A stretch of DNA of 64,000 bases, from the NCBI RefSeq assembly GCF_053078305.1, contig NZ_CP166879.1. The stretch is one strand, 5' to 3'. A program made the translations under genes and the position numbers. The notes under the pieces were generated by a model that saw nothing but the letters and a program-made list of their open reading frames with translations, was not told the origin of the DNA and ran no database searches. Each line of letters opens with the position of its first letter. Positions within the stretch are counted from its first letter, which is position 1. Shown here one piece after another: positions 1-1,324 of this stretch.

Positions 1-923
1 TCGTCACTGTTACGATCCTGTTGATCGAACTTATTGACCAGCACATACAGCGGCACCGATTGCCCCACCGCCAAAATCGCCTCACGGACCTCTTCATCGG
101 AGATCGATTTCAGTTGCGTATAATCCAGCACCGCCAGTACCGCCGAGGCGCGTGCCAGCTGCTGGTTAAGCATTTTTTGCAGATGCGGTTGCCCGGCTTC
201 ATTTGGCCCGGGGGTATCCAGTAACGTCAACTGACCGGGATAACTCTCCAGCCCCGCCAGATGGACAAACTCCACTTCAATCACGGGAATATGCTCAATG
301 GCGGCGTAAGCAGAAAAAGGAAAATCGACGTCCAGCGCCTTCGCCAGTCGCACTAAATCATTCAAACTTTTCAGACAATGAAAAATAGGCTGGGCACCCA
401 GATAATATTTTTCGAAAGCGACGCCATTTTCGATCCGCTGCATAAGCGCACGCATATCTTTATCTATTTCCAGCACATCGGTCAGATGCTTAATATCGCA
501 ATCACGCAGGCGCTGTTGTAATTTTTGAATTAAACAATCGATTGGTGCGACATGTGAAAAATGCAGTACCGGTTCTTTTTGCCCGGGCGTATGGCGAATA
601 AGCGTCGGCAGCGCAGTCATTGGGCGATTGCGATTAGGCAGTACCTCCGTACCAACAATGGCATTAATGGTGGTTGATTTCCCTGCTTTCATAGTACCGA
701 CAATCGCCAGCACCATTTCCAGTCGGGAAATTTTACGCAACTCATTATTCAGCATCGCGTGACGTTCGGCGATATTAGGCTGACTCCAGGGTAAAGCCCG
801 TTGTGGCGCATCGTCTCCGGGTACAGAGAGAGGCATTTTTTCCAGTAACTGCAACTGTTGGCGAGAAAGCTGTAACAGGCGTTCAGCCTCCTGACTTAAC
901 TCATACAGGGTCTGTGTGTACAT
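1..923 (-). CDS. crfC: Dynamin-like GTPase CrfC/YjdA, N-terminal part (gene runs off the window start)
   Basis: Minus-strand ATG at 921-923; reverse translation begins MYTQTLYEL and contains a P-loop GTMKAGKSTTINA; open frame continues to position 1; position matches K-12 synteny next to yjdM. Confidence 0.7.
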   Translation of the reverse strand, partial: MYTQTLYELSQEAERLLQLSRQQLQLLEKMPLSVPGDDAPQRALPWSQPNIAERHAMLNNELRKISRLEMVLAIVGTMKAGKSTTINAIVGTEVLPNRNRPMTALPTLIRHTPGQKEPVLHFSHVAPIDCLIQKLQQRLRDCDIKHLTDVLEIDKDMRALMQRIENGVAFEKYYLGAQPIFHCLKSLNDLVRLAKALDVDFPFSAYAAIEHIPVIEVEFVHLAGLESYPGQLTLLDTPGPNEAGQPHLQKMLNQQLARASAVLAVLDYTQLKSISDEEVREAILAVGQSVPLYVLVNKFDQQDRNSD

Positions 924-1324
924 AGAAAATTCTTCCTTAAAGCAAATTTTATTACTTTTATTTAGCCAGATTGTTTTTGAGTTCTGTTTTCGGCTTTTAT
1001 AATTACTGCAAGAAATAATTTTATATTTAGAGTGTTGTTTTTTATTAGAATAAATAACATCTTCCGATACGTTTAAAACGTCAGAAAGATAAAAATATCA
1101 TGTGAATAAAAAAAAGAACAAGTAGAGCATTAACCTTATCTTAAATAATAAATGGAGGCAAAAAGATTATTTTCTTTTTGCGTTTCCTTTCAAATGAAAA
1201 CGATCGTCGTCTAAAATCAGCAGTACCCCCGACAAACTCAGGGATTTTGTGTATAATTGCGGCCTTTTTCGGCAATCTGCCGTTTTTTGGCGCTTTTGCC
1301 CTGCTGACTTTTGAGGAAATCCAC

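Follow-up and report, generated by a model that had tools for sequence, protein, structure and literature searches.

A probable two-part regulatory region between the divergent genes crfC and yjdM of Escherichia coli

The Escherichia coli genes crfC and yjdM are transcribed divergently, and the spacer that separates them raises the question of which part of this DNA serves each gene, and by what means. In strain MG1655, crfC is also known as rdcA, yjdA or b4109, and yjdM as phnA or b4108; crfC/rdcA regulates the diguanylate cyclase DgcE. The spacer was analyzed within a window of 64 kb, which is the whole stretch of DNA under study and to which all positions refer. An initial annotation had described it as a long AT-rich divergent promoter region with poly-A/T tracts and a composition suggestive of curvature and of nucleoid-protein binding, that carries a good − 10 element for yjdM. 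From the analyses presented here we conclude that this description was right in substance and partly supported in detail. The region is genuine but ordinary and of an already known kind; most probably, it is a common two-part divergent regulatory region of two known genes.

Layout and conservation of the crfC-yjdM spacer

The neighbourhood of crfC and yjdM belongs to the E. coli chromosome: a 1-kb segment was matched in 5417 of the 5426 complete E. coli genomes (megablast), the RefSeq annotation of the matching records places crfC and yjdM at the two sides of the spacer, and the YjdM protein matches the Pfam families YjdM and Zn_Ribbon_YjdM. The spacer had been placed at 923-1324 with a length of about 400 bp; the divergent layout was confirmed, and the limits were corrected to 924-1324 (401 bp), position 923 being still part of the crfC coding sequence. 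The corresponding spacer of MG1655 has 400 bp (4,326,735-4,327,134), and in a pairwise alignment the two sequences show nine differences, eight substitutions and one 1-bp indel, all within 951-1154. The features identified in the spacer are listed in Table 1.

Table 1. Features of the crfC-yjdM spacer and its borders (positions in the 64-kb window)
Feature	Position	Strand	Basis
crfC (rdcA/yjdA) ATG start codon	921..923	-	Sequence; RefSeq annotation of matching E. coli records
crfC ribosome-binding region ATTTGCTTTAAGGA, AAGGA 937..933	933..946	-	Invariant or near-invariant columns ATTTG..TTAAGGA, 18 genera
crfC-proximal conserved block ATTTGCnTTAAGGA	946..933	-	Cross-genus alignment
crfC-proximal conserved block GGCTAAATAAAAGTAA	967..952	-	Cross-genus alignment
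crfC-proximal conserved block TAATTATAAAAGCCGAAA	1005..986	-	Cross-genus alignment
Conserved block TAATTATAAAAGCCGAAAAC with − 10-like TATAAA 1001..996 and GCCGAAAA 994..987	986..1005	-	Cross-genus alignment
Reported H-NS-repressed Eσ70 crfC promoter, start 1010, − 10 TAAAAT 1023..1018, without a good − 35	1010..1023	-	PMC10301672 Table S6; coordinate mapping
AT-rich core with numerous A/T runs; part of the spacer likely silenced by H-NS	924..1200	.	Window GC minimum; MG1655 differences; E. albertii divergence
Perfect 9-bp inverted repeat GCAAAAAGA-N6-TCTTTTTGC, boundary of the two modules	1158..1181	.	Repeat scan; single-strand DNA fold z = − 2.5
Weaker sigma-70-like sequence TTCAAA-17-TAAAAT (9/12), which may be a second yjdM promoter	1189..1217	+	Sequence scan only
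yjdM core promoter: − 35 CCGACA 1229-1234, 17-bp spacer, − 10 TATAAT 1252-1257, discriminator TGCGGC 1258-1263; start predicted at ~1264	1222..1263	+	Sigma-70 scan; cross-genus consensus AATAnCnCCGACAAAnGTAGGGATTTGnTGTATAAT
Leader hairpin H1 CGGCA-auc-UGCCG (1270-1282), then U6 (1283-1288), terminator-like	1270..1288	+	Hairpin/terminator scan
Leader hairpin H2 GGC-gcuuuu-GCC	1289..1300	+	Hairpin kept in place across genera
yjdM Shine-Dalgarno GAGGA (1313-1317) and ATG (1325-1327)	1313..1327	+	TTGAGGA conserved in nearly all orthologues

The two parts of the spacer differ in composition. The GC content of 924-1200 is 24.2%, against 53.6% across the window, and this region includes the lowest-GC stretch of the window at lengths of 100, 200 and 277 bp; the GC content of 1201-1324 is 47.6%. 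The description of the spacer as AT-rich is thus borne out, far beyond chance, for 924-1200 and fails for the remainder, so that it applies to only two thirds of the sequence. The poly-A/T tracts are present as described: there are fifteen runs of A or T of at least four bases in 924-1200, with the T-runs concentrated in the left half of this core and the A-runs in the right half, and six further T runs in 1201-1324.

The two parts also differ in their conservation. The region 1186-1324 is 100% identical in MG1655, 99.3% in a divergent E. coli lineage and 97.1% in E. albertii; for 1010-1156 the corresponding values are 95.3%, 94.6% and 75.2%, the AT-rich core diverging rapidly among Escherichia lineages. 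The inverted repeat at the boundary is kept within E. coli, has lost both outer pairs in E. albertii, and is unalignable in other genera. E. albertii represents a natural control, given that crfC-rdcB has been deleted in this species, leaving about 58 bp of the crfC 5’ end, and the spacer has been retained. There, the crfC-side blocks are down to 83.7% identity in one case and to the 75.2% mentioned above in the other, and the block at 986-1005 has decayed, while the yjdM module is kept. As judged from these sequences, this pattern fits a left part that would serve crfC and a right part that would serve yjdM.

A scan with the YjdM protein, taking one genome per species, yielded 80 loci; the locus L003 (‘uncultured Clostridiales’), a chimeric contig with its junction at position 1182 of the window, was left out. 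The divergent pairing of crfC with yjdM recurs in Citrobacter, Enterobacter, Leclercia, Pseudescherichia, Phytobacter, Superficieibacter, Cedecea, Mangrovibacter and others, where the spacers range from 427 to 1182 bp and are less AT-rich than that of E. coli. On the crfC side the distal part of these spacers is unalignable, and strongly conserved blocks are found across genera in the proximal 90 bp. On the yjdM side, about 20 enterobacterial genera have AATAnCnCCGACAAAnGTAGGGATTTGnTGTATAAT in the 45 bp that precede the leader, with a GC-rich discriminator after it; the hexamers, the 17-bp spacer and the discriminator are conserved in these genera with or without crfC as a neighbour. In Pseudocitrobacter, Kluyvera, Pluralibacter and Cedecea sulfonylureivorans crfC is absent within 3 kb upstream of yjdM, and the promoter is kept. 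Since it is conserved where crfC is absent, this promoter belongs to yjdM and not to the gene pair.

The crfC side: a start reported as H-NS-repressed and the dependence on FliA

An Eσ70-dependent start for crfC at MG1655 position 4,327,049 has been reported; it is made in vitro on naked DNA, is seen in a Δhns strain and absent in the wild type, and is tabulated as H-NS-repressed (PMC10301672 Table S6). By pairwise alignment this position, where the reported start base is T, corresponds to 1010 on the minus strand of the window, 86 nt before the crfC ATG. The TAAAAT hexamer ends 7 nt upstream of it, and a − 35 element is not recognisable. The crfC 5’ UTR, taken from this start, has an unremarkable fold (z = − 0.43). 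The left part of the spacer (924-1200) is, in our model, the crfC upstream region, in which Eσ70 is able to start on naked DNA from a promoter defined by its − 10 element only. Because the start has been reported in cells only when H-NS is absent, the AT-rich DNA is most likely an H-NS silencing platform for crfC.

This bears on the claim that the region is bound by nucleoid proteins, which is supported, indirectly, for H-NS by the published Δhns-dependent start (PMC10301672) and finds no counterpart in the binding motifs: the high-affinity H-NS motif TCGATAAATT has no match with up to two mismatches in 924-1324, and neither the Fis nor the IHF consensus was found in the spacer. A high-affinity nucleation motif and intrinsic curvature are common at H-NS-silenced promoters, and neither is obligatory. 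Occupancy of the spacer by H-NS is inferred from its composition and from one published table in which repression is read as derepression in Δhns. The crfC region resembles H-NS-silenced AT-rich promoters such as stpA and ftnA (PMC10301672) in its very low GC content (24%) and fast sequence turnover, and in that Eσ70 starts from a − 10-driven promoter on naked DNA and in Δhns, the wild type being silent. It differs from them in that the spacer has neither the high-affinity H-NS motif nor phased A-tracts; moreover, crfC is a conserved, core-like enterobacterial gene and not evidently foreign, and its expression depends on FliA as well.

The most invariant stretch on the crfC side, with 18 genera aligned, is the ribosome-binding region at 933..946. 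Further upstream, the conserved block at 986-1005 may be a proximal promoter element or else an element of the 5’ UTR or an operator.

The role of FliA is a difficulty for this model. The yjdA mRNA drops 12.3-fold in a ΔfliA strain, and 5 min of sigma-F induction are enough to raise it 5.3-fold (Zhao 2007; PMC1935009). In the same study, the ten best candidates, yjdA included, were represented by upstream fragments of about 350 bp, which EσF ‘mostly’ transcribed in vitro, the text giving no detail for each gene. By RNA-seq, the values for crfC were 111, and 11 in ΔfliA (PMC4183435). Such a strong dependence is unexplained by a purely sigma-70/H-NS model and counts against it. It could be accounted for if crfC were transcribed mainly from a non-canonical sigma-28 promoter in the spacer, with GCCGAAAA as the − 10 element and no canonical − 35, the sigma-70/H-NS start being minor or cryptic. 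In favor of this explanation, GCCGAAAA (994..987) matches the sigma-28 − 10 consensus GCCGATAA at seven of eight positions, is identical to the − 10 octamer of tsr, and is conserved: in E. coli and at 12 further loci the sequence GCCGA / GCCGAAAA precedes the crfC ATG by 65-74 nt, the distance being 71-74 nt in all except Leclercia. Against it, the − 35 position upstream of GCCGAAAA reads TCTTGCAG or TCCACACG and not the canonical TAAAGTTT. A search for TAAAGTTT-N11-GCCGATAA gave no match with up to three mismatches in the spacer, and allowing up to five mismatches and spacers of 10-12 gave none in E. coli or in most orthologues. Furthermore, the signals obtained for this sigma factor are intragenic. 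By ChIP-seq, the FliA site is confined to the crfC coding sequence, some 230 bp ahead of the stop codon, and the upstream promoter was called ‘incorrectly predicted’ (PMC4183435); the RpoF genomic SELEX peak is at the same intragenic position, and the spacer shows neither signal. We confirmed the intragenic FliA motif at 7109-7136 of locus L002, outside the 64-kb window.

In comparison with FliA class 3 promoters such as that of tsr (TAAAGTTT-N11-GCCGAAAA), the region upstream of crfC thus shares the − 10 octamer and the FliA-dependence of the mRNA; in contrast, it has neither the − 35 element nor a ChIP or SELEX signal. We regard a sigma-28 promoter as the main source of crfC transcription as rather unlikely. 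Two ways to accommodate the FliA data can be considered: there may be a − 35-less sigma-28 site that was missed by ChIP, to which we give a similarly low probability, or the block at 986-1005 may be an element of the 5’ UTR or an operator and FliA may act on crfC indirectly.

The yjdM side: a probable, constrained promoter and its leader

The right part of the spacer (approximately 1222-1324) is a compact and strongly constrained yjdM module, with a near-consensus sigma-70 promoter and a GC-rich discriminator. The TATAAT at 1252-1257, which had been noted as a good − 10 element about 70 bp ahead of the yjdM start codon, is very probably the − 10 of yjdM. It is located 68 nt before the ATG at 1325, and although the exact hexamer occurs five times on the plus strand of the window, CCGACA-17-TATAAT, with 10 of 12 positions matching the sigma-70 consensus, is the sole match of at least 10/12 on this strand, and it is conserved in about 20 genera. 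The TGTG that was pointed out ahead of the hexamer is present at 1248-1251, but it is out of register by one base for an extended − 10: it abuts TATAAT directly, which puts TG at − 16/− 15 and − 14/− 13 rather than at − 15/− 14, and therefore the yjdM promoter is not of the extended − 10 type. The region of the weaker match at 1189..1217 is invariant within Escherichia and not conserved across genera.

The yjdM transcription start is predicted from the sequence, not mapped, near position 1264. No yjdM start was found in the Rend-seq, Conway 2014, Romero 2014 (where only a REP325 row is present) or Shigella M90T data, and a full-text literature search did not find the yjdM promoter sequence. 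The yjdM-yjdA spacer is also missing from the ‘constitutive’ promoters listed by RpoD genomic SELEX, which is a weak negative.

With CCGACA-17-TATAAT followed by TGCGGC, the yjdM promoter resembles those canonical sigma-70 housekeeping promoters that have a GC-rich discriminator, and its hexamers and discriminator are conserved across genera. It differs from them in that the promoter spacer itself is conserved (GTAGGGATTTG) and includes a CCC-N10-GGG inverted repeat, a feature that hints at an extra factor.

With a start near 1264, the leader would be about 61 nt long and would carry two small hairpins as well as a strong ribosome-binding site; after the − 10, the order is a U-run, H1, U6, H2, UUUUGAGGA and the ATG. 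Judging from their conservation, a regulatory role of H1 and H2 is possible. In its stronger form, the leader would be a cis-regulatory RNA that sets the expression of yjdM, and of REP325, either because H1 and U6 act as a conditional intrinsic terminator (attenuator) or because H1 and H2 bind a protein or an RNA or form a stabilising element. Several observations are consistent with this proposal: H1 (5 bp, − 5.3 kcal/mol) scores as terminator-like; H1 and H2 keep their positions across about 18 orthologues, although the stem of H2 occurs in at least eight different sequences; in 10 of 14 lineages the leader has a better fold than its mononucleotide shuffles (p < 0.05); and the yjdM mRNA is intrinsically stable (preprint 10.64898/2026.03.23.713779). 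However, H1 is short, with a stem of 4 bp in Citrobacter, and in Enterobacter the U-run is interrupted (TCATTT). The GGC/GCC core of H1 is nearly invariant and shows few compensatory changes: its covariation score was reached by 176 of 500 shuffles, and its three pairs changed on both sides by 18 of 500. When the shuffles preserve dinucleotides, the leader of E. coli does not stand out (z = − 1.0). The Rfam 15 covariance models gave only sub-threshold matches in 924-1324 (E > 1; 13-17 bits, against gathering thresholds of 50-94), and yjdM is not named in the published 3’-end mapping supplements. On balance, a cis-regulatory function of the leader is doubtful. An alternative pairing between H1 and H2, seen in E. 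coli and reminiscent of a terminator/antiterminator, was rejected given that it is impossible in Enterobacter and other genera. A broader proposal, also built on conservation, is that the leader (U-run, H1, U6 and H2) would be an unrecognised cis-regulatory RNA common to the Enterobacteriaceae, acting as an attenuator or binding platform for the output of yjdM and REP325, and that the CCC-N10-GGG repeat would be the operator of an unknown regulator; we consider it quite improbable.

Setting these proposals aside, the yjdM promoter, as a sigma-70 promoter, probably also drives transcription into the downstream REP325 array. It has been proposed that REP325 is transcribed from the yjdM promoter (PMC4550694), and yjdM-yjdN has been described as an operon (preprint 10.64898/2026.03.23.713779). 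The REP325/naRNA4 array (Rfam RF02564; 1678-2161) is located downstream of yjdM and shares the transcription unit of the yjdM promoter region; nonetheless, it is a 3’-UTR element outside the coordinates of the spacer and not a part of the promoter region.

Other readings of the spacer and its significance

It could also be considered that the AT-rich DNA is not simply a target of H-NS and has an architectural role, setting the geometry of the promoters through intrinsic curvature or as a site for Fis or IHF. The many A and T runs and their distribution between the two halves of the core would agree with it. However, the AA/TT periodicity at 10-11.25 bp is not significant, its value being reached by 25% of the shuffles, and A-tracts without helical phasing do not support curvature, so this part of the initial annotation is not sustained. 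Apart from the lack of both consensus sequences, a published table places crfC under H-NS and not Fis (PMC10301672), and the sequence of the core is poorly conserved. We consider an architectural role of this kind very unlikely.

Even less tenable is the idea that one of the minus-strand ORFs, 1141..1365 (74 aa) or 1167..1433 (88 aa), encodes a real small protein: both frames are open here and the second also in E. albertii, but the first has a stop in E. albertii and a frameshift in Citrobacter, the second has stops in Citrobacter, Kluyvera, Leclercia, Enterobacter, Pseudescherichia and Superficieibacter, and neither has a Pfam match, which makes a coding function extremely unlikely and agrees with their earlier dismissal as probably spurious. 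Both frames are antisense to the yjdM promoter and 5’ coding region, and the constraint on these accounts for their local conservation. A 20-aa ORF on the plus strand (1152..1214) was also rejected, its start codon being lost in MG1655 (ATG to ATA).

In this work, the value added to the existing annotation is small, and consists in a precise anatomy for a spacer that is left blank in genome records. It singles out a puzzle, namely that crfC/rdcA is strongly FliA-dependent and yet its spacer has no canonical sigma-28 promoter. It also ties the published H-NS-repressed start of crfC to its sequence elements, and supports a likely promoter for yjdM that would also feed the much-studied REP325/naRNA4 array.

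Sequence variation and rearrangements between crfC and yjdM

When the strain of the window was compared with MG1655 over 481 bp, all the differences (nine of nine) were located within positions 951-1154, an AT-rich stretch of 204 bp in which the two strains differ by 4.4%; none was found in the 277 bp that flank it. In E. coli K_EC180, an IS1 element lies inside the spacer (locus positions ~430-1220), directly 5' of the crfC start codon, and separates this gene from its own upstream region. In Escherichia albertii (locus positions 2550-3000), a deletion has removed crfC-rdcB, and of crfC only some 58 bp at its 5' end remain; the spacer is still present, the yjdM promoter and leader are intact, and the elements on the crfC side are decaying. 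The contig USCO01000113.1, labelled 'uncultured Clostridiales', shows 98.7% identity to E. coli from the equivalent of window position 1182 onwards, with unrelated DNA joined upstream of this point; this metagenome assembly is either chimeric or contaminated.

Features on either side of yjdM in the window
Feature	Position	Strand	Remark
GCCGAAAA	986-1005	minus	same as the tsr sigma-28 -10 octamer
GCAAAAAGA-N6-TCTTTTTGC	1158-1181		E. coli
GTAGGGATTTG and CCC-N10-GGG	1222-1257		yjdM promoter
REP325 array	1678-2161		between yjdM and yjdN; Rfam naRNA4 (RF02564), 86-111 bits

A sigma-28-like octamer upstream of crfC

The octamer GCCGAAAA is conserved: in E. coli and in 12 further loci it precedes the crfC ATG by 65-74 nt. 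No sigma-28 -35 element accompanies it upstream of crfC, and no binding of FliA at this site has been reported in the literature; the published data on the control of crfC by FliA are in mutual conflict (PMC1935009, PMC4183435).

The yjdM promoter and its surroundings

Downstream of yjdM, the REP325 array includes five tandem REP units, versus the six described for K-12; it has been recast as a 3'-UTR terminator and stabiliser instead of a nucleoid organiser (2026 preprint, 10.64898/2026.03.23.713779). Upstream, the palindrome TGACAGG-N4-TGTCA occurs about 75-90 bp 5' of the yjdM -10 in Enterobacter, Leclercia, Phytobacter and Pseudescherichia (comparison loci L010, L015, L016, L020, L022, L023 and L026); it is absent upstream of the E. 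coli yjdM promoter, where GCAAAAAGA-N6-TCTTTTTGC stands in its place. Between the -35 and -10 of yjdM, GTAGGGATTTG is kept in about 20 genera. The -35 region and the -35/-10 spacer form a CCC-N10-GGG inverted repeat, a candidate that may be the operator of some regulator.
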